NCBI GenBank assembly: GCA_035317005.1 | Contig: DATHHW010000137.1 | Location: 384-64,383, forward strand | Length of the DNA: 64,000 bases | Direction of reading: 5' to 3' | Source: Pyrinomonadaceae bacterium | GTDB taxonomy: Bacteria; Acidobacteriota; Blastocatellia; Pyrinomonadales; Pyrinomonadaceae | Part shown: piece by piece, positions 11,664 through 43,437 of the stretch | Layout: each line of letters begins with the position of its first letter | How positions within the stretch are numbered: position 1 is the stretch's first letter | Translations under genes and position numbers: made by a program | The notes under the pieces: generated by a model | Databases searched by the model: none | The model's input: the letters and a program-made list of their open reading frames with translations, nothing else | Told to the model about the DNA's origin: nothing

Positions 11664-11996
11664 TTATGCCGCAATCGGTCTGAGCTTGGCGTATTGATTC
11701 TTATTTGCCTGGGCCGCGTCCCAAAGATCCACGGCCTTCTGCAAATTCATCCAGATGTCGGGTGTTGTCTTGAACACACGCGACAAGCGGATCGCCATAT
11801 CCGCCGTCATTGACCGGCGCTCATGAATTAACTCGTTGACGAGGCGTGGTGAAACTCCAAGCCGATTTGCTAATTCTTTTCGCGTTAGCGAGGCGACCTG
11901 ATCGCTTCCATCCTCAGCCAGTTCCGCCAGCATGTTTCTGAAGATCGCGCCGGGATGAGTGGGACGCACTTTGCGCTGAATGCTTTGTTCTGCCAT
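11664..11996 (-). CDS. higA: HigA-family antitoxin (XRE-type HTH)
   Basis: HPGAIFRNMLAE...LANRLGVSPRLVNELIHERRSMTADMAIRLSRVF is the typical HigA HTH. ATG at 11996 is preferred over the TTG at 12011. It lies 11 nt downstream of higB. Confidence 0.85.
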   Translation of the reverse strand: MAEQSIQRKVRPTHPGAIFRNMLAELAEDGSDQVASLTRKELANRLGVSPRLVNELIHERRSMTADMAIRLSRVFKTTPDIWMNLQKAVDLWDAAQANKNQYAKLRPIAA

Positions 11997-12007
11997 ATCA
12001 ATCTCTC

Positions 12008-12286
12008 TCAATGATAGTCCTCAAAGTTTACCTCGCTTACGTCGCCGTCCGCAAAATGAAAGGTCAGCCGCCAGTTCTTATTGACCTTCACCGCCCACGT
12101 GCCGGCGCGATTTCCCTTTAGCTCGTGCAGACCGAAGTGTGGTAAAGCAATATCTTCCAGAGTAGCCGCCGCGTCGATCACGTCAAGCCGATCTCGAAGG
12201 CGACCGGATAGTTCTGGTGGAATTCCTCGCTTGCTATTAGTTTCGAAGAACTCACGCAAGCCCTTATGCTTGAATGAACTAATCAT
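12008..12286 (-). CDS. higB: HigB-like RelE/ParE-superfamily toxin (plasmid maintenance system killer family)
   Basis: 92 aa, FKHKGLREFFETNSKRGIP...LHELKGNRAGTWAVKVNKNWRLTF. Toxin-first order upstream of higA. Confidence 0.85.
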   Translation of the reverse strand: MISSFKHKGLREFFETNSKRGIPPELSGRLRDRLDVIDAAATLEDIALPHFGLHELKGNRAGTWAVKVNKNWRLTFHFADGDVSEVNFEDYH

Positions 12287-14370
12287 CTCCTGGCGTCACT
12301 GGCCAAAGTTGAAAGGGGCGGAATGCTGAGACCAAAGTTCCGCGGATTCTCACCAATAATCGCAGCGGCGAAAAAGCTCGGAACGTACCCGGCTTGATTA
12401 CGAAAGTCATTGTCCAACTTGTCCCGGTTCGCGTAAATCGTCCAGAAGTTTCTCTGGTAGTTCTCAGTCTCTCTAAGTTGTCTCAGGGTGTCCACGACCC
12501 ACGTCGGACCAGTATTGTAACTAAGTATCACCAGCGTCATGGTTCCCGAATCTTCACCGAGTTCAGCCATGCGATCGGCGATGTAGTGCGCGGCTGCCGG
12601 TGTCATTTTCTCGACATCGCACATGTCCTCGCGCGCCACGCCGTAGTTCCTGGCAGTATCCGGCAGGAACTGAAACAGCCCGGTAGCGCCTATCTGGTTT
12701 ACAAAGCAGGGTTTGTACTCTGACTCGATCATCGGCAGATAGATGCCCACGATGCTCGGAATTTTCCGGGCCGCAAACACCCGCGCGATCAAGGGGACAA
12801 ACGGCACCGCGCGCCCATACACCACATTCAAACTCTCGCCACCAGGTTTGTTGGAAGTGGTTCCTTCGCGCGCAGCGTAACGGTCAACGTGATTTTTGAT
12901 TGCCCGCAATGCTTCTTCGTTGAGTTTCACCGGACGGTCGCCCATCATCGCCGAGATGCGCTGCTCCTGCTCATCGACAAATTGGAGCTGCTCGGCCTCG
13001 CTCATCTGGGTGTAGAGCTTATTCGCAATAGCCGAGGCCGCCGGCGTCGTCACTACGATTTTTCTTTGCGGACTGAATCTTTGGTAAAGAAAAACTCCGC
13101 CCAGCACGATCAGGGCTACGAGACCAAGAGCCAACAGGCCATAGCGATGATAGCCATTTGATTTACCAGGCGGGAAAGCCGTTGAAATTGCCTGCTCGCG
13201 AGCGAGGGTCGCAGAGACCTCGCTACTGTTCACGACCCCGGCCTTGGGGATTGATTCGCGTATTAGACCGAGCACGACTCGCTCTTTCGATCTGTCAAAG
13301 GTATCGAGCTCCCGTCTCGCCGCGGTTAGATCCGCGAGTAGTTCCGCGGCAGTCTGATATCGTTCTGCTGTCTCTTTACGCAGAGTTTTGTTGACGATGG
13401 TCCAAAGCCGTTGCAGCTTCGGATCATCTGTCAGTTCAAGCGGCGCCAGTTCACGCTCGAGGATTGCCACCATCGTGTCCATCCGAGTTGCGCCGGCGAA
13501 CGGCGCGCGATAGGCCAGCATTTCATAAAGCACGACTCCCAAACTCCAGATGTCCGTGCGCTCGTCGACGGGCAGACCGCGGGCTTGCTCGGGCGACATA
13601 TAGCCGACCGTTCCCAGCACAATGCCAGTCTCCGTTTGCTGTCGGGTGATGGCCGGAAGGTCAGCCGGCGTCTGCTCTAAGAGTTTCGCAATGCCAAAGT
13701 CGAGCACCTTCACGATGCCGTCGCCGCGGCGCATGATATTCTCGGGCTTGATATCACGATGCACGATACCGGCTGCGTGCGCGGCAGAAATCGCGGAAGC
13801 AACCTGAGCGACAATGTCCAACACATCCTTGAGGGACAACTCGTCACGTGCAATCAACTCGCGGATTGTTTGGCCGTCGATGAATTCCGTGGCTATGAAG
13901 TGGACGCCGTCCAACTCTCCGACTTCATGAATCGTGAGTATGTTCGGATGATTCAAAGCTGAAGCGGCCCGCGCCTCTCTCTGAAAACGGCGTAGACGCG
14001 TGTCGTCAGAAACAAAGTAAGCCGGCAGGACTTTTAGCGCGACCAGCCGATCAAGTCGCGCGTCATGAGCCAGATAGACTTCGCCCATCCCACCACTTCC
14101 AAGGTGGTCGATGATTTTGTAGGGCCCGATCTCCTGTCCGATGTGGTTGATCGAATGGTCGCCCAGAATGACGCGCGCATCCTGCGCGATGGCCGGCTCC
14201 TCGATAAAATCCGCGGCGGCATCGTAAGCACTAACCAGTGAACTCGCCTCAGACTGCAACTCTGCGTCACCGGCGCACACCTGCTCCAGAAACACGGCGC
14301 GCTCCGCCGGACCGCGATCAAGCGCCGCCTGTAAAACTTCTTCGACTTGTTGCCAGCGTTCAGGAGTCAT
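12283..14370 (-). CDS. Ser/Thr protein kinase with one TM helix and an extracytoplasmic SLT lytic-transglycosylase domain
   Basis: Kinase motifs GSGGMGEVY, HRDIKPEN, DFG, SPEQ. TM segment YGLLALGLVALIVLGGVFLY. Ectodomain has IESEY, GATGLFQFLP and LSYNTGP SLT motifs. Start is moved to ATG 14370 (MTPERWQQVEEV) because 14371..14535 is repeat sequence. Confidence 0.85.
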   Translation of the reverse strand: MTPERWQQVEEVLQAALDRGPAERAVFLEQVCAGDAELQSEASSLVSAYDAAADFIEEPAIAQDARVILGDHSINHIGQEIGPYKIIDHLGSGGMGEVYLAHDARLDRLVALKVLPAYFVSDDTRLRRFQREARAASALNHPNILTIHEVGELDGVHFIATEFIDGQTIRELIARDELSLKDVLDIVAQVASAISAAHAAGIVHRDIKPENIMRRGDGIVKVLDFGIAKLLEQTPADLPAITRQQTETGIVLGTVGYMSPEQARGLPVDERTDIWSLGVVLYEMLAYRAPFAGATRMDTMVAILERELAPLELTDDPKLQRLWTIVNKTLRKETAERYQTAAELLADLTAARRELDTFDRSKERVVLGLIRESIPKAGVVNSSEVSATLAREQAISTAFPPGKSNGYHRYGLLALGLVALIVLGGVFLYQRFSPQRKIVVTTPAASAIANKLYTQMSEAEQLQFVDEQEQRISAMMGDRPVKLNEEALRAIKNHVDRYAAREGTTSNKPGGESLNVVYGRAVPFVPLIARVFAARKIPSIVGIYLPMIESEYKPCFVNQIGATGLFQFLPDTARNYGVAREDMCDVEKMTPAAAHYIADRMAELGEDSGTMTLVILSYNTGPTWVVDTLRQLRETENYQRNFWTIYANRDKLDNDFRNQAGYVPSFFAAAIIGENPRNFGLSIPPLSTLASDARR

Positions 14371-14412
14371 CAGAACATTGCCAATTGTTGATTGCCGATT
14401 GCCGATTGATCT

Positions 14413-14533
14413 GCGCTGGGAGCGCGGACGTCCGTCCGCATTGATCGCGAAGCGCGAAAACTTGTGCTTGTGAAAAGGAATAAAGAAAAACTTGTTTCGC
14501 ACGCGTTGCGGACGAGCCGTCCGCGCTCCCAGC
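14413..14533. repeat. Palindromic element between sigma and kinase genes
   Basis: gcgctgggagcgcggacgtccgtccgc ... gcggacgagccgtccgcgctcccagc, with an inner partial palindrome. A solitary related half lies at about 20630..20672. Confidence 0.75.
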
Positions 14534-14566
14534 ATGATCTAGCCTCTCTCCAAACCACATCGCTCT

Positions 14567-15160
14567 CTATCTATTCAGCCTTCGATACAACCAGGCCTTT
14601 GCTGCGCGCCAATCGCGGCGCACAGTCATCACCGAAATCTGTAACACCTCCGCGGTTTCTTCCAGTCCCAGACCACCAAAATAGCGCAGCTCTACTACCC
14701 GGCTCTTCCGCAAATCGATCTTCGCCAATCCATCCAGCGCTTCGTCCAGCTCCACCAGTTCCCGTGCGCGTTCCCTGGGCATTAGCTCGGCTTCGGCCAG
14801 CGAAACTCGCTGCACGTCGCCGCCGTGTTTAGCGCAATGCCGGCGTCGCGCGTGATCGATCAAGACGTGGCGCATGACCTGGGCGGTGACCGCGAAGAAG
14901 TGGGCGCGATTCTGCCATTTGATTTTCTTTTGTCCGGCGAGACGCAGATATGCTTCGTTGACCAGCGCGGTAGTCCCGAGCGTGTGGCCATTCCGCTCTC
15001 GCTGCACATAACGATGCGCGATGCGCCGCAACTCGTCATAGACCAAAGGGGTCAACTTGTTGAGCGCGGCTTTGTCGCCCTGCCGCCACTCAATCAGCAA
15101 TCCCGTTAAGTTGTCCGCCGCGACCATCATCGTGCCCATCTCTCTTAGTTTAGAGTTCAA
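14567..15160 (-). CDS. ECF-type RNA polymerase sigma factor (PF07638 / TIGR02999-like, kinase-associated type)
   Basis: [56 protein letters not shown] is the hallmark N-terminus of this ECF family. The exact start among several Met codons is uncertain. Confidence 0.85.
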   Translation of the reverse strand: [197 protein letters not shown]

Positions 15161-15441
15161 GCTTTAGCCTGCTCCTGGAAACAGCAACCTGAAGGTTGAA
15201 CTCTGAACTCAAGACTTACCACTACAGAGATTCTAGCATCATTGCCGCAGGCTCAACTTTCAGAGATCCTGAAACGGAAAAAGTATTTGTGCCGCAGAAA
15301 AACTTTTCCTTCCAATGAACATTCTCGCCGCGATTTCTCGCTTGCCCCTTTTAGACCATGAACACTTCCCTGATCTTTTCTCGCTGATCAAAGTGAGGAC
15401 CACTTGAGTGGCCCAAACTAAAACCAGGAAAGCTGAGGGAC

Positions 15442-16281
15442 ATGCTAATGAAAATCAAAAGAATCCTGCTCTTTTCACTGACTTTAATAATCTCTTCATC
15501 CACGGCTTCGCGTCTTTCCAGCGCGGTAACGACGCAGTCAGGTACGGTCTATCAGCAGATGACGCTGGCGCAACGCGCGGGCTTCGTGACCGAAAAGGCA
15601 CACGAAATTTCGCGAAAGATTTCCGGTAACGATTATGAATTTACGACGGCGTTTGAAATGGAGATTCAGAAAGCTGTCGATATGTATGCCCGGCGCATTG
15701 GAAACAACGCCGGCGACAGCCCGGGCAAGGGCGATGTTCGCATTGTCTTTGAGCGGGGTCAGACGGTCGCGCCCGTCTTGATCAAAACATTCAAGGCACA
15801 CAATGTCTCGCCGTTAATCGGACTCTACCTGCCGCTGGTTGAATCTGAATACGTCAACATTGACTCGCCAAACTCAGTGGGGGCGGTGGGGATGTTTCAG
15901 TTTGTGCCACAGACCGGCGAGCACTACGGCCTGAGCGCTGACGATTTACTCGACGTGGAGAAATCCGCCGACGCGGCCGCGCGCTATATCGGCGATGGTA
16001 TCAAACAGTTCGGCTCGGACCGCATGAAAGAGGCACTCGCCCTGCTGGCCTACAATCGCGGTGGCGGCAATGTCGAGCGCGATCTGGCGACGCTCGTTAA
16101 CGAACAGAACCGCGCGTGTAGTATCTGTGCGCTGACCGAGCAGCGCGATAAGCTGGACAAGACTTTTCGCAGTGAGAATGTCTACTACGTCCCGCGCTGG
16201 TTCGCCGCCGCGATCATCGGCGAGAACCCTCAGGCCTTTGGTCTGCAGACACGACCGCTGTCGTCATTCGAATCGAAGTAG
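15442..16281 (+). CDS. Secreted SLT-domain lytic transglycosylase, paralogous to the kinase ectodomain
   Basis: Signal peptide. VESEY, GAVGMFQFVPQTG, LAYNRGGG. Collinear with residues ~500-750 of 12283..14370, including YVPRWFAAAIIGENPQAFGL versus YVPSFFAAAIIGENPRNFGL. Confidence 0.85.
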   Translation: MLMKIKRILLFSLTLIISSSTASRLSSAVTTQSGTVYQQMTLAQRAGFVTEKAHEISRKISGNDYEFTTAFEMEIQKAVDMYARRIGNNAGDSPGKGDVRIVFERGQTVAPVLIKTFKAHNVSPLIGLYLPLVESEYVNIDSPNSVGAVGMFQFVPQTGEHYGLSADDLLDVEKSADAAARYIGDGIKQFGSDRMKEALALLAYNRGGGNVERDLATLVNEQNRACSICALTEQRDKLDKTFRSENVYYVPRWFAAAIIGENPQAFGLQTRPLSSFESK

Positions 16282-20450: not shown

Positions 20451-20679
20451 ACCAACCTCCGGATGGGACAGTTTTCCTACTAAAATTGTGCGAATGAAAC
20501 CGAATGATTAATTCAAGGAGAGCGGATTATAGTCCACGCCGCGCCCGTCGCGCTACTATTGATCAATGGCAATTCGCCAATCGCGAATAGATTGTTCTGC
20601 TTCGGAGTGATTTAAGTGTTTGAGCGTGCTTCGCACGCGGGCGAAGGCGCGGGCGCCCGCGCTCCCAGTAGCTGATTGT

Positions 20680-26777: not shown

Positions 26778-27401
26778 TTAATCGATCAAATGAAACGCGA
26801 CCTTCGCGTCCTCGGGCTCGAGGATCGGGTGATAGTCTTTGCCGTAGTTCGCGACAATCTTATTCACGTAGTTCTGCGTTTCGGGATAAGGCGGGACGCC
26901 CTGGTATTTGTCCACTGCTCCTTCACCGGCATTGTATCCGGCGAGAGCGAGCTTCACGTCGCCATTGAATCTCTTCAACAACCACGCTAAGTACTTCGTT
27001 CCGGCTTCGACGTTGCAAGCCTCGTCTTTGAGATCGGTGCAATCAAATCGTTTCGCAGTGGCCGGCATCAGTTGCATCAGGCCGCGCGCTCCCACGGGAG
27101 AGGTCGCGTCGGGATGATATTTCGATTCCTGTTGGATGACCGCGTGTATGAATCGCGGGTCAACGCCTTCGCGCTCTCCGGCGTGAAAGATGATCCAATC
27201 CAGATCACAATCGCCGGAAACGGGAATGTCGGCGGGTATTTTCTCGAACTCAACAGCAGCGTCGACAGAAGGCGCAAATACAGGACTGAAGAAGAGTCCC
27301 GTAAAGTTTGTTAGACAAAAAAGAGAAATGATGGCAAAGGGTGCGAACTTGGCAGAGCGCAAGTGGGGAAATCGAGGCAACTTCATTCGGTTTTTCTCCA
27401 T
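26778..27401 (-). CDS. Secreted SLT-domain lytic transglycosylase
   Basis: IQQESKYHPDA, GARGLMQLMPATA and AGYNAGEGAV are the canonical family-1 SLT motifs. N-terminal signal/anchor. Confidence 0.85.
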   Translation of the reverse strand: MEKNRMKLPRFPHLRSAKFAPFAIISLFCLTNFTGLFFSPVFAPSVDAAVEFEKIPADIPVSGDCDLDWIIFHAGEREGVDPRFIHAVIQQESKYHPDATSPVGARGLMQLMPATAKRFDCTDLKDEACNVEAGTKYLAWLLKRFNGDVKLALAGYNAGEGAVDKYQGVPPYPETQNYVNKIVANYGKDYHPILEPEDAKVAFHLID

Positions 27402-32533: not shown

Positions 32534-35065
32534 CTACTGCGACAATCCCACGCGCCGCAGCCGCTCCGCAAAGCGCGGGTCCGAACGAAGCGGGTCCCAA
32601 ATCGGATTCACTTTGAGATAGATGAGCGGACCAAAGCGCCCATCAAGGGCCTGATCGAGCCACTTAAACGCCTCATCTTTGTTGCCCAGACTCGCCTGCA
32701 CGGCCGAGAACCAGTGCGGAGAAACATAATGATCCTTTGACAGTTCCAACAGTTCACTCATCGCCTTTTGAGCTTCGGGCTTGCGCCCGCATGCCGCGTA
32801 CTCCTGCGCGAGCCAGCCTAACCCCTCGATCGCCGGGACCATCCTTTGGGCTTTTAGGGCTTCATCAATCCCTTCGTCGCACCGGCCTTTTTGAATCAGC
32901 GCGCGGCCCAACAACCAATGCGCCCGCACAAAGCTCGGATCCATATCGATGGCCTTTTTCAGTTGAGCAATCGCTTCATCAGGGCGCCGCGCAAAATAAT
33001 AATACTCGCCATGATCGGTCTGAAAGATCAGCGACAGCGGATCGATCTCTTCCGCTTTCTTGATCTCTGCGATGGCCGCTTCAGTGCGGCCCGACGAGAT
33101 CAAAAGGTAAGCATACCCATGATGCGGAGTCGCATAGTTGGGATTTAGGTCGATAGCTTTTTTGTATTCTTGCTCGGCTCCAACCCAATCCCAGTCGTAA
33201 TAAAGCTTGACGTAGGCAAGCGACGTGTGTGCTTCCGACAGGGAATTATCAATCTCAATTGCTTTGCCGGCGGCCTGCTTCGCTAAAGGAAAGACATCGC
33301 CCGGCGGCCGAATACCCTGACTACTGAGAAAACTGTAGCAGTCGGCGAGTCCCGTGTAGGCGAGCGCATAGTTTGGATCTTTTTCTATAGCTTGCCGGAA
33401 ATAGTCAATCGCCTTTTTATAGCTCTCTTCGGTGCGCTTATTCCAATAAAAGCGGCCCTTCAAATACAGTTGAAAGGCTTCGGGATTTTCCGTGAAGTGT
33501 TTCATCATGCGATTGTGCTCTTCGCCAGAGATTTTCAACCGCAGGTTGTTCGCGATCTGACCGGCGATATCACGTTGCAGCGACATCAGGTCTGAGGCCT
33601 TGCGCTGGTACTGTTCACCCCAAACTTGCTTGTTATCGCGCACGTCCACCAACTCAGTACTGATGTTGAGATCGTCGCCACGCTGCATAATGCGCCCCAC
33701 GAGCACAGCTCGCACGCCCAGCTCTTTGCCGATGACCAAAGGATCAGTCTCTTTGCCTTTGTAGCGAAAGACAGAACTGCGCGCGATCACTCGCAGATTT
33801 GGCAGCTGGGCCAGGCTGTTAATAATGCTTTCCGTTAAACCATCCGAGAGATACTCAGCATTGGGATCGCCGTTCTGGTTTATGAAAGGAAGAACGGCAA
33901 TTGATTCGATAGCTACTTCGGTGTTGCGCGCGTGCAAATAATAGGCGAGCCCGATGACGCCGATGACCAGCATAACACCGGCAACGATTACTCCGAGTTT
34001 GTGTTGTTTGATTCCAGAGACGAGATACTCAGCGCTCGAGGCGCGCGTGGTGGGAGCACCGCCTTCGAGACTGTTTGGAGTTCCGCCTTTAGGCGGCGAG
34101 GCCTGCGCGCTGGATGTATCTCCGCCTGTAGAAGGTACTCCGAACTTTTCCGAGGGCGGCGGAGGCACGGTTGTATCGACCCCGGCACTGTCCTTGAGTT
34201 CGCGCCTTACTTCCTTTAGCTCGATCGCCACGTCTTTGATTGTTTGATAACGCTCATCAGGATCTTTCGCGAGGCAACGACGCACGACGCGTTGCAGGTC
34301 GGCGGGCGCCAGGGGATTGAGATCGCTAATCGGCGCAACCGGTTCGCGAATGATTTTGTTGAGAGAGTCGATCGCATCTTTGCCCTCGAAAGCCCTCTGG
34401 CCCGTCACCGCCTCAAACAGGATGCAGCCGAACGAGAAGATGTCTGAGCGTTGATCCACCACCTGGCCCTGTGCCTGCTCGGGCGACATGTAACCCACCG
34501 TGCCGAGAATCATGCCGGGCTTTGAATGCTGTTGCAGGATCGCGGTCGCAATGTCGCTGCTGCCAGTGCCTGAGATCCGTTGTGGCTCGACCAGTTTTGC
34601 CAGTCCGAAATCGAGAACCTTTGCGTGGCCGTCGCGGGTGATCATGACGTTATCGGGCTTCAGATCACGATGCACGATTCCCACCGAGTGAGCTTTCGCC
34701 AAACCCTCCGCCGCATGCTGCAGATATCTCAGCAACCTCCCCAGATCGATCTGGCTGCCGTGAATCAATTCTCGCAACGTTTGGCCATCGATGAACTCCA
34801 TCGCGATAAAGTGCAAACCATCGGTCTCGCCGATCTCGTAGATGTGCGCGATACTCGGATGATTGAGCGCCGCGGCGGCCTTCGCCTCCTGCACGAAGCG
34901 CCGCATGCGCTCCTGATCAGAAGCCACTTCAGCCGGAAGAATCTTGATGGCGATCTTGCGATTCAGCTTCGAATCTTCCGCCAGATACACTTCGCCCATT
35001 CCGCCCTCGCCAATCTTCGAGCGGATTTCGTAGCGCCCGAGTTTTGTTCCGGCGGCTAGACTCAT
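32534..35065 (-). CDS. Ser/Thr protein kinase with TM helix, periplasmic TolB-N-like module and TPR repeats
   Basis: GEGGMGEVY, HRDLKPDN, DFG, SPEQ. TM segment LGVIVAGVMLVIGVIGLAYY. IAVLPFINQNGDPNAEYLSDGLTESII. C-terminal TPR-like repeats ending in RFAERLRRVGL. Confidence 0.85.
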   Translation of the reverse strand: MSLAAGTKLGRYEIRSKIGEGGMGEVYLAEDSKLNRKIAIKILPAEVASDQERMRRFVQEAKAAAALNHPSIAHIYEIGETDGLHFIAMEFIDGQTLRELIHGSQIDLGRLLRYLQHAAEGLAKAHSVGIVHRDLKPDNVMITRDGHAKVLDFGLAKLVEPQRISGTGSSDIATAILQQHSKPGMILGTVGYMSPEQAQGQVVDQRSDIFSFGCILFEAVTGQRAFEGKDAIDSLNKIIREPVAPISDLNPLAPADLQRVVRRCLAKDPDERYQTIKDVAIELKEVRRELKDSAGVDTTVPPPPSEKFGVPSTGGDTSSAQASPPKGGTPNSLEGGAPTTRASSAEYLVSGIKQHKLGVIVAGVMLVIGVIGLAYYLHARNTEVAIESIAVLPFINQNGDPNAEYLSDGLTESIINSLAQLPNLRVIARSSVFRYKGKETDPLVIGKELGVRAVLVGRIMQRGDDLNISTELVDVRDNKQVWGEQYQRKASDLMSLQRDIAGQIANNLRLKISGEEHNRMMKHFTENPEAFQLYLKGRFYWNKRTEESYKKAIDYFRQAIEKDPNYALAYTGLADCYSFLSSQGIRPPGDVFPLAKQAAGKAIEIDNSLSEAHTSLAYVKLYYDWDWVGAEQEYKKAIDLNPNYATPHHGYAYLLISSGRTEAAIAEIKKAEEIDPLSLIFQTDHGEYYYFARRPDEAIAQLKKAIDMDPSFVRAHWLLGRALIQKGRCDEGIDEALKAQRMVPAIEGLGWLAQEYAACGRKPEAQKAMSELLELSKDHYVSPHWFSAVQASLGNKDEAFKWLDQALDGRFGPLIYLKVNPIWDPLRSDPRFAERLRRVGLSQ

Positions 35066-40059: not shown

Positions 40060-43000
40060 TCAGGATCCAACCTGGCGCAGCAAATCCGCAAAGCGTTGAT
40101 CCGAGCGGAGGGCGTCGAGCCGCGGATCGACCTTAAGCCAGACCAAAAAGTACTCACGATTCGTGTACGCTTTGTTAAGTTCAGCGAAAGCCTGGTCTTT
40201 CTCGCCGAGTTCGGCAAGGAATCTGGCCGCGATGGATGAAGACAAATCAGCCGGACGTTTCTCACCCGTGATGGTGCGCAGAAAGCCCTGCCAACCTCCT
40301 TTGGCAAAACTGTCTCTGATCATCGTTGCATTTTGAAAGTTGCCGGTGAGCTCCTGGAACTTGGCAAATTCGTCGACGCTCTCAGGATAGTTACCCTTCA
40401 ATTGGTAAGCCGTGGACAGACTGTAATGCGCCCGCGCAAAATTTGGATCCAGCTCAACCGTCTTCTTTAGTTGCGCTACGCTCTCGTCATAGCGGCGCGA
40501 AAAGAACAAGCACTCTCCATACATCCGGTTGATGGTCAGCGAGAGCGGTTCGATCTCCAGCGCCCGCCGGAATTCAGCAAATGCCTCATCCGGACGGCCG
40601 CGGTGCGTGAGCAGCTCGCCGTAATACTGGCGGGCCGTCGCGTAATTCGGGTTCAGTTCGAGCGCCCGCTTGAACTCGCGCTCAGCCGCGACAAAGTCAT
40701 AATCGTAACCGCTGAGAACATACCCCAGCGAAGTATGGGCTTCGGCCAACTCTTCATCGATTGCCAAAGCTTTCTGAGCATTCTCCCTCGCTTTGGGCAT
40801 CAGTTCAGCAGGAGGCATTCCGCCATAGCCGGAGAGAATTGCCTGAGCATCCGAGAGACCCGCATACGCCAGCGCATAGTTCGGGTCAAGCGAAATTGCC
40901 TGTTTGAAATACTCGATCGATTGCTGCAAATCTTTCGTTGTTCGCTTGTTCCAGTAGAAACGTCCGCGCAAGTAAAGCTGATAGGCTCCGGCATTCGCGG
41001 TGTAACTTTTCGCCAGCTTACGCTGATCCGTATCCGTTACTTTGGCTTGCAGGTTGGTTGAGATGTCGCGCGCAATGTCCTTTTGTAACGCGACCAGGTC
41101 GGTCGCGGCGCGATTATATGTTTGCCCCCAAACCTGGTTGCCGGTCCTCGTGTCCACCAACTCCAGACTGAGCGTCAATTGATCGCCGCGCTGCGTAACG
41201 CGTCCGTTCACGACGGATTGGACGTTCAAGTCCGAACCAAGCTGCTGCGCGTCTACGTCCTTACCCTTATATCTAAACACCGAACTGCGCGGCTTGACCG
41301 AAAGGCTGGGCAACTGCGAGAGGTTATTGATCAGCTGCTCAGTCATGCCATCAGACAAATACTCGACGTCGGCATTACCGCTGGCGTTTACGAACGGCAT
41401 TACTGCAAGAGACTTAATGCCTGCCGGTGGATTGGGCGCGCGATAGTAAAACCAGATTCCCAGCGTTGTGACAGCGAGCAGCAACATGGCAACCAGGGCC
41501 ACGACCCGGTAACGGATCGATCCCTCGCCCGGCTGAGGGTCACCTGAGGTCGGGCGCGCTTCGGCGATGCTCGTCGGCTGCTCGGACAAACCAACTTCAG
41601 TTTTACTGGTTGCGGCCGCCGGTTTGTTTTCAGCGTCTGAGACGTCAGGGCCGGGCGCGCTCGAGCGGTTTATCTCAGACTGAATATCCAGATCGCGACG
41701 CAGGCTCTTAAGATCGATCATTAGGTCGCGCGCGGTCTGGTAGCGGCTGTCGCGATCCTTGGTCAGAGCTTTGCGGACGATGCGTTGTAGTTCCGCTGGG
41801 GTCTCTGGCGCGAAGGTAGTTAGCGGCGGCGGCTCGGTCTCCAGAATTGAAACGACGGTATGGCTTTTGGTCTCGCCGCGGAATGGCGCCCGCCCCGCCA
41901 CCATCTCGTAAAGCACGACGCCCAGACTCCAGCTGTCCGTGCGCGCATCGAGGTCGAGGCCGCGCGCCTGTTCGGGCGACATGTACGCCGGAGTGCCGAG
42001 GACTCTGCCGGGATCAGTCAGCACCAGCGCGCGGGTGTCGGCTTCATGATCGATCATCTCGCGCGCGTGATCTTCCAAAAGCTTGGCCAAACCAAAGTCG
42101 AGCACCTTCACGATCCCATCGTGGCGCACCATGATGTTTTCCGGCTTGATGTCGCGATGCACAATTCCCGCGCCGTGAGCGGCGGTCAGCGCGAACGCAG
42201 CCTGCTGCGCCACGTCCAGGGCTTCATCGATTTTCATGCGCCCGCGCTTTATTCGCGCGCGCAGGGTCTCGCCATCGATATACTCAGCCGCGATAAAATG
42301 CGCGCCACTCTCAGCGCCGATTTCGTGAATGGTGAGCAGATTCGGATGATTAAGCGCGGAGGCAGTGCGGGCTTCCTGCTGAAAGCGGCGCAGCCTTTCT
42401 TTGTCGTTGGTGAATTCAGCCGGCAAGGTCTTGAGCGCAACCTTGCGGCCCAACTTCGTGTCTTCCGCCAGGTAAACTTCGCCCATGCCGCCCACGCCGA
42501 GAAAAGAAATGATCGTGTAACGGTCCGGCAGATCGCTTCGTTTCAAATCAGGTTTCGCCAACCTGGCGGAACTTGAGGATTGCCTTAGCGCCGAAGTTTC
42601 TTCGGCTCCGAGAAAGTGACGCACCTCTTTGACGAACATGTCCCAGGAAGGATCGCCTTCGAGCAACAAATGATTTCGGCCATTAAGCGGAACAAAGCGC
42701 GCGCCCGGAATCGTGCCCGCGAGTGTGCGGCCTTCTTCGAACGGGACACCCGATTCGTCCCGGCAGTGCAGCACCAGCGTGGGCACTTTCACCTGCGGCA
42801 AAAGATTCGCCACGTCGATGTTGCCCATGATGTTCAGGAGCTTGACCGCATTTTCGGGCGAGGTCGAAACGCGTTGCAGGTCATTGAATGACTGCGCCTG
42901 TTCCGGCGTCGCGTCGGGCGCATAAAGGGAGGTCCACAGTTGACGGAACGCGGGATTGTCTTTGCCCCAACCCAATCTAACCAGGGTCAGCGCCGCCTGT

Positions 43001-43437
43001 CTTTGCTCGATCTCTTCGGGTGAGTCTCGCATCGCCCAACCTCGCGCGTAGGCGCCGTAAAGAATCAGGTGCGAAACTTTTTCGGGATGACGAACAGCGT
43101 AAGCGATGGCCACCGCGCCGCCCTGCGAAATGCCCAGCAAGGGAAACCGGTCCAGTTTTGCGGCTTCGACTACTGAGTCGAGGTCTTCGACCCACGCGTC
43201 AAATGACAAATCCGAGACGTTCCAATCAGACAGGCCATTACCGCGCTCGTCATAGCGGATGAAGGTATGATCGCGCGCGAACTCAGCCAAAAGGTGACGC
43301 CAGACCGGACTGCGCCAATCGAATTCCAGATGGCTGAGCCAGTTCGCTGCCTTCACCAGAGGCGGCCCTTCGCCAACCGTGGCGTACGCGATCCGCACGC
43401 CGTCATGAGTGGTGCAAAAATGGATTTGCTGTTCCAT
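40060..43437 (-). CDS. Alpha/beta-hydrolase + Ser/Thr kinase + TM + TolB-N-like + TPR multidomain protein
   Basis: N-terminal hydrolase fold with GISQGGA nucleophile elbow. Kinase motifs GVGGMGEVY, HRDIKPEN, DFG, SPEQ. TM segment VVALVAMLLLAVTTLGIWFYY. LAVMPFVNASGNADVEYLSDGMTEQLI. TPR repeats. Confidence 0.85.
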   Translation of the reverse strand: MEQQIHFCTTHDGVRIAYATVGEGPPLVKAANWLSHLEFDWRSPVWRHLLAEFARDHTFIRYDERGNGLSDWNVSDLSFDAWVEDLDSVVEAAKLDRFPLLGISQGGAVAIAYAVRHPEKVSHLILYGAYARGWAMRDSPEEIEQRQAALTLVRLGWGKDNPAFRQLWTSLYAPDATPEQAQSFNDLQRVSTSPENAVKLLNIMGNIDVANLLPQVKVPTLVLHCRDESGVPFEEGRTLAGTIPGARFVPLNGRNHLLLEGDPSWDMFVKEVRHFLGAEETSALRQSSSSARLAKPDLKRSDLPDRYTIISFLGVGGMGEVYLAEDTKLGRKVALKTLPAEFTNDKERLRRFQQEARTASALNHPNLLTIHEIGAESGAHFIAAEYIDGETLRARIKRGRMKIDEALDVAQQAAFALTAAHGAGIVHRDIKPENIMVRHDGIVKVLDFGLAKLLEDHAREMIDHEADTRALVLTDPGRVLGTPAYMSPEQARGLDLDARTDSWSLGVVLYEMVAGRAPFRGETKSHTVVSILETEPPPLTTFAPETPAELQRIVRKALTKDRDSRYQTARDLMIDLKSLRRDLDIQSEINRSSAPGPDVSDAENKPAAATSKTEVGLSEQPTSIAEARPTSGDPQPGEGSIRYRVVALVAMLLLAVTTLGIWFYYRAPNPPAGIKSLAVMPFVNASGNADVEYLSDGMTEQLINNLSQLPSLSVKPRSSVFRYKGKDVDAQQLGSDLNVQSVVNGRVTQRGDQLTLSLELVDTRTGNQVWGQTYNRAATDLVALQKDIARDISTNLQAKVTDTDQRKLAKSYTANAGAYQLYLRGRFYWNKRTTKDLQQSIEYFKQAISLDPNYALAYAGLSDAQAILSGYGGMPPAELMPKARENAQKALAIDEELAEAHTSLGYVLSGYDYDFVAAEREFKRALELNPNYATARQYYGELLTHRGRPDEAFAEFRRALEIEPLSLTINRMYGECLFFSRRYDESVAQLKKTVELDPNFARAHYSLSTAYQLKGNYPESVDEFAKFQELTGNFQNATMIRDSFAKGGWQGFLRTITGEKRPADLSSSIAARFLAELGEKDQAFAELNKAYTNREYFLVWLKVDPRLDALRSDQRFADLLRQVGS

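Follow-up and report, generated by a model that had tools for sequence, protein, structure and literature searches.

A predicted kinase-activated ECF sigma factor is linked to a Ser/Thr kinase with a lytic transglycosylase-like ectodomain and a divergent secreted paralogue in Blastocatellia

Extracytoplasmic function (ECF) sigma factors of group ECF43 have no acidic DAED/DxxD patch in region 2.2 and carry the consensus QTTA instead, and phosphorylation of this motif on Thr by a neighbouring kinase restores binding to core polymerase (PMC13147305, PMC8999054). The ECF43 pairs studied are EcfP-PknT of Vibrio parahaemolyticus and EcfK-PknS of Xanthomonas citri (PMC13147305, PMC8999054); in EcfP the motif reads STTA and its second Thr is phosphorylated (PMC8999054). 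Here we analyzed a stretch of 64,000 nucleotides from a Pyrinomonadaceae bacterium (contig DATHHW010000137.1; called the window below, all coordinates being positions in it), in which three linked genes encode an ECF sigma factor, a Ser/Thr kinase with an SLT ectodomain and a divergent secreted SLT paralogue. The sigma/kinase switch itself is already known. No kinase ectodomain in the form of a catalytically intact lytic transglycosylase (LT), accompanied by a co-conserved secreted paralogue and a promoter motif, came up in the searchable literature, though Iyer et al. 2020, reportedly a survey of ECF43 kinase ectodomains, may list SLT.

All three open reading frames (ORFs) lie where an initial annotation of this DNA had placed them. 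The genes and their parts are as follows.

14567..15160, minus strand: ECF sigma factor of the kinase-linked (ECF43-like) type by its PF07638 and TIGR02999 profile matches; coordinates of the longest ORF.
14966..14977, minus strand: GTTA (aa 62-65) in sigma region 2.2, replacing the acidic DAED/DxxD of other ECFs; T63/T64 are the predicted phospho-acceptors.
12283..14370, minus strand: receptor Ser/Thr kinase of 695 aa, in the order N-terminal extension of ~83 aa, Hanks domain, transmembrane (TM) helix, LT ectodomain.
14122..14370, minus strand: N-terminal extension of ~83 aa, ahead of the kinase domain.
13360..14121, minus strand: Hanks-type kinase domain (residues 84-337) with GSGGMGEV, VALK, HRDIKPEN, DFG, SPE and DIWSLG.
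13084..13143, minus strand: single TM helix, aa 410-429 (YGLLALGLVALIVLGGVFLY), by sequence reading and hydrophobicity scan.
12286..13083, minus strand: extracytoplasmic MltD-type (family 1D) LT module of 266 aa (residues 430-695), by SLT profile, AlphaFold2 (AF2) and Foldseek.
12724..12726, minus strand: codon of the predicted catalytic Glu E549 (LPMIES), aligned to MltD E144.
15442..16281, plus strand: stand-alone secreted paralogue of 279 aa (SLT E 8.9e-15) with an N-terminal signal-peptide-like segment.
15841-15843, plus strand: paralogue catalytic E134.
16117-16128, plus strand: paralogue CSIC motif, of the conserved CxxC type.

The trio resembles EcfP-PknT and EcfK-PknS in its PF07638-type sigma factor, the absence of an acidic sigma2.2 patch, the Thr-Thr-Ala motif, the adjacent single-pass Hanks kinase and the lack of an anti-sigma factor, and activation by phosphorylation would be expected. 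It differs from them in the MltD-type LT ectodomain, in the secreted paralogue with its promoter-like motif and in its origin from Acidobacteriota (Blastocatellia), and phosphorylation is here a prediction. Literature searches on kinase with LT, FHA with LT and Pyrinomonadaceae with sigma returned nothing relevant; no paper with this architecture was found in the searchable literature, in agreement with the annotator's statement that it was not known to be characterised. Homologues carry only generic database names, 'serine/threonine protein kinase' or 'transglycosylase SLT domain-containing protein'.

The sigma factor scored above the cut-off with both PF07638 (E 5.9e-54, 183 bits; cut-off 21.1) and TIGR02999 (E 4e-67, 225.6 bits; cut-off 126.15), as expected from its initial assignment to this type. 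Orthologues align from residue ~11, indicating that the start is probably ATG 15130 (or 15139) and that TTG 15160 is only the longest-ORF start. Among 68 sigma orthologues the motif at the GTTA position is mostly QTTA and otherwise ETTA, GTTA or QTSA, and LVNEAY comes next; the presence of GTTA/QTTA in sigma2.2 agrees with the claim that this sigma family is linked to Ser/Thr kinases. No anti-sigma domain was detected by profile search in the three genes of the trio. The two-domain PF07638/TIGR02999 sigma factor, the xTTA motif without acidic patch and the adjoining Hanks kinase are the features of an ECF43-type system. As judged by profile and GTTA motif, the sigma factor would be of the kinase-activated kind, and it is predicted to be phosphorylated by the kinase on T63/T64; kinase-linked groups other than ECF43 are ECF59-62, 217, 267 and 283 (PMC7826278).

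The kinase gene follows the sigma gene on the same strand, as annotated, and its product matched Pkinase (E 8.6e-46, 156.9 bits; cut-off 31.7) and, near the C-terminus, SLT (E 1.3e-11). The Gly-rich loop, VALK, HRDIKPEN, DFG and SPE were all located, in keeping with a Hanks kinase, and the claim of a single TM helix held, the only one being at aa 410-429. The longest ORF (12283..14535, minus strand) encodes 750 aa; its start at 14535 was rejected because a palindromic insertion takes in the first 55 codons and the orthologues all begin with MTPERWQQ, which corresponds to ATG 14370. Alignments by tblastn, in which orthologues and the distant locus L207 align from residues 1-6, indicated that the N-terminal extension (residues 1-83) is common to the sigma-linked kinase-SLT proteins, including that of L207 at 38% identity. 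The window's two other Hanks kinases lack it, aligning only from residues 78-84, and it may be regarded as a candidate sigma-docking region. These two kinases (40060-43437 and 32534-35065, both minus strand; kinase-domain identity 60% and 47%) have no adjoining PF07638 sigma factor.

Full-length kinase-SLT homologues of 620-760 aa were recovered in an exhaustive search. Short homologues (220-460 aa, many starting inside the kinase C-lobe) might have been read as truncated or degenerate kinases, a reading dropped on context: they come from genes cut by a contig end or split by frameshifts in long-read assemblies, in which the neighbouring genes are split too. One further protein (P0110, 460 aa, from a 1.8-kb ENA contig) carries the first ~90 residues of the sigma factor fused directly to the C-lobe of the kinase with its TM helix and SLT module; whether a natural in-frame deletion or an assembly chimera, it was left out of the analysis.

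The PASTA kinases (PknB, PrkC, StkP) are like the window kinase in having a Hanks kinase domain, one TM helix and an ectodomain from the peptidoglycan-enzyme world, and they are thought to read cell-wall precursors or fragments (PMC13147305). The window kinase is not itself a PASTA kinase: no PASTA family was detected in it at E<=0.1, and the NCBIfam PASTA-kinase model NF033483 gave 315 bits (cut-off 450), covering residues 139-537 only, the kinase part. It differs from the PASTA kinases in the all-helical lysozyme-like fold of its ectodomain, the retained catalytic Glu and the ECF sigma output.

The ectodomain had been described as a full SLT domain of ~270 aa with catalytic-type motifs; it measures 266 aa, its SLT score is 44.6 bits and that of the paralogue 54.7 bits (cut-off 21.3), and IESEY, GATGLFQFLP and LSYNTGP are present as written. 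Its best solved sequence relative is MltD of P. aeruginosa (8rhe, E 1.1e-7), with LPMIESEYKP aligned to LPVIESAYNP and the catalytic Glu falling on E144. An AF2 model built from 24 sequences reached a pLDDT of 89.2 and a pTM of 0.87, and in a Foldseek search of the PDB the top six hits were all MltD chains (E 1.4e-5 to 3.1e-5, TM-score 0.56-0.62, 236-249 aligned columns; best 8rhi), ranked ahead of MltE, Slt, MltC and MltF. In MltD, E144-S145 form the family-1 ES motif with Pro141 at -3, which is lacking in other LT families, G159LWQ is motif II, and N215 and Y249, the Tyr orienting the Glu, complete the set (PMC11327851). The ectodomain carries P546-x-x-E549-S550, GLFQF, SYNTG and GYVP, and the paralogue the same set. 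It shares with MltD (8rhe/8rhf/8rhi) the ES motif with Pro at -3, the GLxQ clamping-loop motif, YNxG, the Glu-orienting Tyr and N- and C-terminal extensions of the catalytic module, and differs from it in lacking a lipoprotein anchor and LysM, in a structural-alignment identity of ~19-20% and in being tethered through the TM helix to a kinase.

Profile searches of the ectodomain detected neither LysM nor a lipoprotein signal, indicating that its relation to MltD is confined to the catalytic module and is not one of orthology, and the NCBIfam MltD model NF008050 gave only 50 bits (cut-off 508). SLT with the ES motif, motifs II and III with the Tyr H-bonded to the Glu, and the closest fold all place it in the MltD-like 1D family. 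Its anatomy is secure, and by motifs and model the ectodomain is an intact-looking lytic transglycosylase, tethered ~17 residues from the membrane. No other sensor domain was found in the kinase protein by profile and structure searches. A Cys pair, C126/C155 of the ectodomain (C555/C584 of the protein), is conserved in the ectodomain and in most family members; the two residues lie in the 12703-12714 and 12616-12627 regions and probably form a disulfide.

The same module was searched for among 1.84 billion representatives (E<=1e-30), giving 142 clusters that cover the whole 250-aa module. The 123 family representatives (at 50% identity) that span the catalytic core comprise 19 kinase fusions, 41 stand-alone or short proteins and 63 with other N-terminal parts. 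The catalytic Glu is kept in 117 of these 123, equally in all architecture classes, suggesting that the groove is functional, and GLFQF, SYNTG and GYVP are invariant or nearly so in the ectodomain and paralogue families and across the 123 representatives. In the class with other N-terminal parts, seven of ten sampled proteins were FHA-TM-module proteins of 440-760 aa. Other forms were also seen: P0180 (1238 aa) has the order Trans_reg_C (ToxR/OmpR-type DNA-binding), TPR, FGE-sulfatase and module, and P0156 and P0167 are proteins of ~1400 aa with the module in mid-protein followed by WD40 or TPR arrays.

The FHA-TM-SLT proteins make up a large, uncharacterised family of Blastocatellia/Acidobacteriota, for which the only name is 'FHA domain-containing protein'. 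They share with the window kinase the 250-aa LT module (35-48% identity), the topology and the phylum, and differ in having a phospho-Thr reader instead of a kinase and in not being found beside an ECF sigma factor in the clusters examined. Genes of this type occur at L085:5485-11762 and in L086 (Blastocatellia MAG, or metagenome-assembled genome, GCA_035293105.1), and at L083:5366-8506, where two FHA-SLT genes stand in tandem. These clusters also hold a Pkinase-PEGA-FGE-sulfatase kinase, DUF4384 proteins, Trypsin_2, other FHA-TM proteins and a Peptidase_C14-TPR protein (caspase-like protease), and in L085 three genes of type VI secretion (T6SS), TssK, TssL and TssM, come directly after.

The secreted paralogue had been called collinear with the whole ectodomain, and it is so at 37% identity over 254 aa (BLASTP E 8e-54), far beyond chance. 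The peptide motifs quoted for it in that annotation, among them VESEY, LAYNRGGG and the common tail YVP-FAAAIIGENP-FGL, were all confirmed. It has a Sec-type leader only, with no carbohydrate-binding domain and no secretion-system signal detected. Paralogues adjacent to the sigma-kinase genes have lost the Cys pair of the ectodomain and carry a conserved CxxC in a different helix.

The conservation of the linkage was determined in a scan of species-representative genomes, which gave 413 related stretches; the best 80 loci, all from Blastocatellia or Pyrinomonadaceae MAGs, were analyzed together with two metagenome loci. The full arrangement of paralogue (minus), sigma (plus) and kinase-SLT (plus) was present in 65 of this set of best 80 plus two, 16 loci being cut by a contig end and one, L069, being a true exception; of the testable Blastocatellia genomes, 65 of 66 thus keep the trio. 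The kinase gene lies directly downstream of the sigma gene in 72 of the 73 loci that extend far enough. In L069 the kinase-SLT gene (812-2881) has no preceding sigma gene, and an EamA-like transporter ORF ends 180 nt upstream. Complete trios were also found at a distance, in L209 (ectodomain 37% identical) and L210 (48%); the sigma and kinase genes overlap by 4 nt in L209 and likewise in another distant kinase-SLT locus (36% identity), and L207 has the reversed order, kinase then sigma, with QTTA in its sigma factor. The sigma/kinase/SLT linkage, which the first annotation wished to see checked in relatives, was upheld down to 36-48% identity and is secure. The genes around the trio are not conserved, and no uptake or catabolic genes were found among them.

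A bipartite motif of fixed spacing, TGAACAC-N12-TTCTCGCT, was present in all 65 intergenic regions between paralogue and sigma gene, in 100 instances (one or two copies each). In the direction of the paralogue it reads (A)TGAACACTTT-N8-TTTCTCGCTTA, with a GAAC-type -35 box and, ~18 nt downstream, a CGC-containing -10 box; the -35 is often preceded by an A/T-rich stretch. A GAAC-type -35 box is typical of ECF promoters. The motif copies of the window and the putative promoter of the sigma gene are the following.

15359..15385, plus strand: proximal motif copy, ending 57 nt short of the ATG of the paralogue; putative ECF-type promoter of that gene, with a presumed orientation.
15316..15342, plus strand: distal copy of the same bipartite motif, with one mismatch.
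15230..15238, minus strand: extended -10 of housekeeping type (TGCTAGAAT) upstream of the sigma gene; from it the sigma-kinase operon is predicted to be transcribed constitutively.

These are the only two copies of the motif in the window, the chance expectation being 0.13 in 64 kb, and a search of ~1 Mb of related loci likewise showed no further site. From the first copy to the start codon of the paralogue the distance is 63 nt (interquartile range 58-72), independently of intergenic lengths of 122-581 nt, and in 29 loci two copies stand 39-44 nt apart. Exact matches in metagenomes fell in this same intergenic region in 72 of 80 cases. Seven of the eight off-locus matches look like chance (low GC, no plausible gene). 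The eighth (L094:3083-3110), the only one that looks real, lies 72 nt upstream of the gene L094:3182-5785 with the same geometry as at the paralogue; this gene encodes a secreted CBM9 and DUF5916 protein of 868 aa, possibly a second sigma target.

No sigma-70-like promoter was found for the paralogue. For the sigma gene, an extended -10 of the form TGnTA(A/T/G)(A/T)AT was found within 130 nt of the start in 55 of 65 loci (shuffled sequences averaged 1.1), its conserved version reading TGnTAGAAT. Read in the simplest way, these promoter-like elements would make the sigma-kinase operon constitutive and the paralogue ECF-dependent. The stretch of the window that separates the extended -10 from the sigma start also holds a small inverted repeat, AGAGTTCAA ... 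TTGAACTCT (about 15150-15215, minus strand); a similar inverted-repeat sequence occurs in the L064 intergenic region and is perhaps another short mobile palindrome.

A second palindromic sequence occupies the spacer between the sigma and kinase genes, outside the conserved unit.

14415..14533, minus strand: palindromic insertion (long hairpin of ~120 nt) in the sigma-kinase spacer.

It has perfect 16-nt arms (14415-14430 and 14518-14533) plus inner arms, an RNA fold of -67.9 kcal/mol (z -6.6) and no match in Rfam, and it creates the spurious upstream ATG of the 750-aa ORF. A conserved RNA element at this position was rejected, as the spacer varies from 0 to 570 nt across other loci (0-12 nt in several, and a 4-nt gene overlap in distant ones) and its inserts are structured and unrelated. 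The shortest spacers and the overlaps favour an operon of the two genes. The spacer thus resembles a landing site for small palindromic elements, with equally structured inserts in other loci, and one arm of the window palindrome has a weaker copy at 20654-20669. Directly downstream of the kinase gene is a pair encoding a HigB-like toxin (PF05015) and an HTH_3 antitoxin (11664-12286, minus strand), the HigB start codon overlapping the kinase stop codon (12283-12286); related loci have no such pair at this position. Elsewhere in the window, a small ORF at 26778-27401 showed weak SLT-like similarity.

From these elements we infer a wall-status circuit that would build on the ECF43 phospho-switch, our favoured explanation of the trio, which we advance as a tentative one that falls somewhat short of an even chance. 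The sigma-kinase operon would be transcribed constitutively from the housekeeping-type extended -10, yielding a sigma factor that would be intrinsically inactive through the replacement of the RNA polymerase-binding acidic patch of region 2.2 by GTTA. The inner-membrane kinase would hold its LT module ~17 residues above the membrane, where it would meet glycan strands, most plausibly nascent or uncross-linked ones. A long glycan in the catalytic groove would gather several kinases and lead to trans-autophosphorylation, and the kinase would then phosphorylate the sigma factor on T63/T64. Phospho-sigma would bind core polymerase and fire the TGAACAC-N12-TTCTCGCT promoter or promoters of the divergent gene, and the soluble periplasmic paralogue would degrade the strands, switching the signal off by negative feedback. 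The trio would then probably serve to couple cell-wall glycan status to gene expression. A comparable logic operates in the RsgI/SigI systems of Clostridium thermocellum, in which an extracytoplasmic glycan-binding or glycoside-hydrolase-like module sits on the regulator of an alternative sigma factor that induces enzymes for the same polymer; those systems differ in using anti-sigma sequestration and a different sigma family and in responding to plant polysaccharides.

The initial annotation had proposed that such a domain, as the input of a kinase-to-ECF pathway, would be a functional analogue of the PASTA kinases. The SLT ectodomain, its catalytic motifs and the conserved linkage are as that proposal requires; the use of an LT domain as kinase input is presumed, and the analogy is hypothetical. 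Several observations weigh against the circuit. Strict conservation of catalytic residues is expected of an enzyme and would not be needed by a pure sensor, and the occurrence of the same module in FHA fusions beside T6SS genes suggests an enzyme recruited from the cytoplasm. The distal motif copy stands at a fairly constant distance from the sigma gene (median 105 nt), which would also suit the motif being read the opposite way, as an autoregulatory promoter of the sigma operon, and in L209 and L210, the distant trios, no such motif could be recognised. Finally, the window sequence comes from a soil metagenome and is matched in DNA runs only.

The best surviving alternative, possible and leaning toward the unlikely side, is that the LT module is mainly an effector enzyme, anchored in the inner membrane and set from the cytoplasm; the kinase fusion would couple cutting to phospho-signalling triggered by another cue, and the sigma factor would raise the dose of the soluble isoenzyme. 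Whatever the architecture, ~95% of representatives keep the catalytic Glu and the other motifs, and the module is most commonly joined to an FHA phospho-Thr reader (63 of 123 representatives being non-kinase fusions). The FHA-SLT genes of L085 and L086, clustered with a Ser/Thr kinase and TssK/TssL/TssM, would suit a space-making peptidoglycan cutter, and LT domains on other membrane machines are known, such as AmpG1 of A. baumannii (PMC13507758). On the other hand, the extracytoplasmic part of an ECF43 kinase, PknS, is required for signalling (PMC13147305), the window kinase protein lacks any other sensor domain, and the sigma-kinase-SLT linkage stays tight over 36-80% identity, which speaks for an ectodomain of importance to the pathway. 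The effector and sensor roles are not mutually exclusive and can coexist.

It is improbable, by comparison, that the ectodomain senses foreign glycans, such as chitin oligomers or peptidoglycan fragments of neighbours or prey in the periplasm, with the paralogue serving feeding or competition. The MltD groove binds chitotetraose (PDB 8rhi; PMC11327851), the organisms are soil Blastocatellia, and the L094 motif site lies upstream of a secreted CBM9-DUF5916 gene. That site is single and unreplicated, however, the leader of the paralogue is of Sec type only without any carbohydrate-binding or secretion-system signal, and the unconserved neighbourhood offers no uptake or catabolic genes. Least probable, and by now quite unlikely, is a binding-only pseudo-enzyme in which the kinase-fused module keeps fold and groove without turnover, like PASTA or LysM domains: the retention of the C126/C155 pair in the kinase-fused copy and most family members and its loss in the adjacent paralogue, together with an identity of only 37% that implies different properties of the two copies, would fit it, whereas the ES motif, P at -3, GLFQ, YNxG and the Glu-orienting Tyr are all conserved and the Glu is lost in only one of 19 kinase-fused representatives.

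Taken beyond the trio, the 250-aa MltD-like module might serve throughout Acidobacteriota to read peptidoglycan glycan strands across the membrane, plugged into at least three cytoplasmic heads, namely a Hanks kinase with ECF sigma factor, an FHA domain and a ToxR-like DNA-binding domain, the kinase form acting through substrate-templated clustering on uncross-linked strands that would lead to sigma phosphorylation and induction of a clearing enzyme. We put this forward as a speculative generalisation with the chances against it. If true, it would be a diderm counterpart of wall sensing by PASTA kinases in which a live enzyme active site serves as receptor. If the module is an effector instead, the kinase and FHA fusions would be a new example of phospho-signalling steering a peptidoglycan cutter, possibly for T6SS assembly.

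The monitoring of peptidoglycan in diderms outside Proteobacteria is largely obscure, and so are the signals read by ECF43 kinase ectodomains, even in the two studied cases. The ectodomain described here offers an identifiable fold, a known ligand class (glycan strands), a known inhibitor class (bulgecin) and one catalytic residue that can be mutated. The likely output gene adjoins it with a sharply defined promoter-like motif, making the input and output of sigma phosphorylation directly testable. The trio would thereby open a way to study how Acidobacteriota, a soil phylum of high abundance that has received little study, maintain their cell wall.

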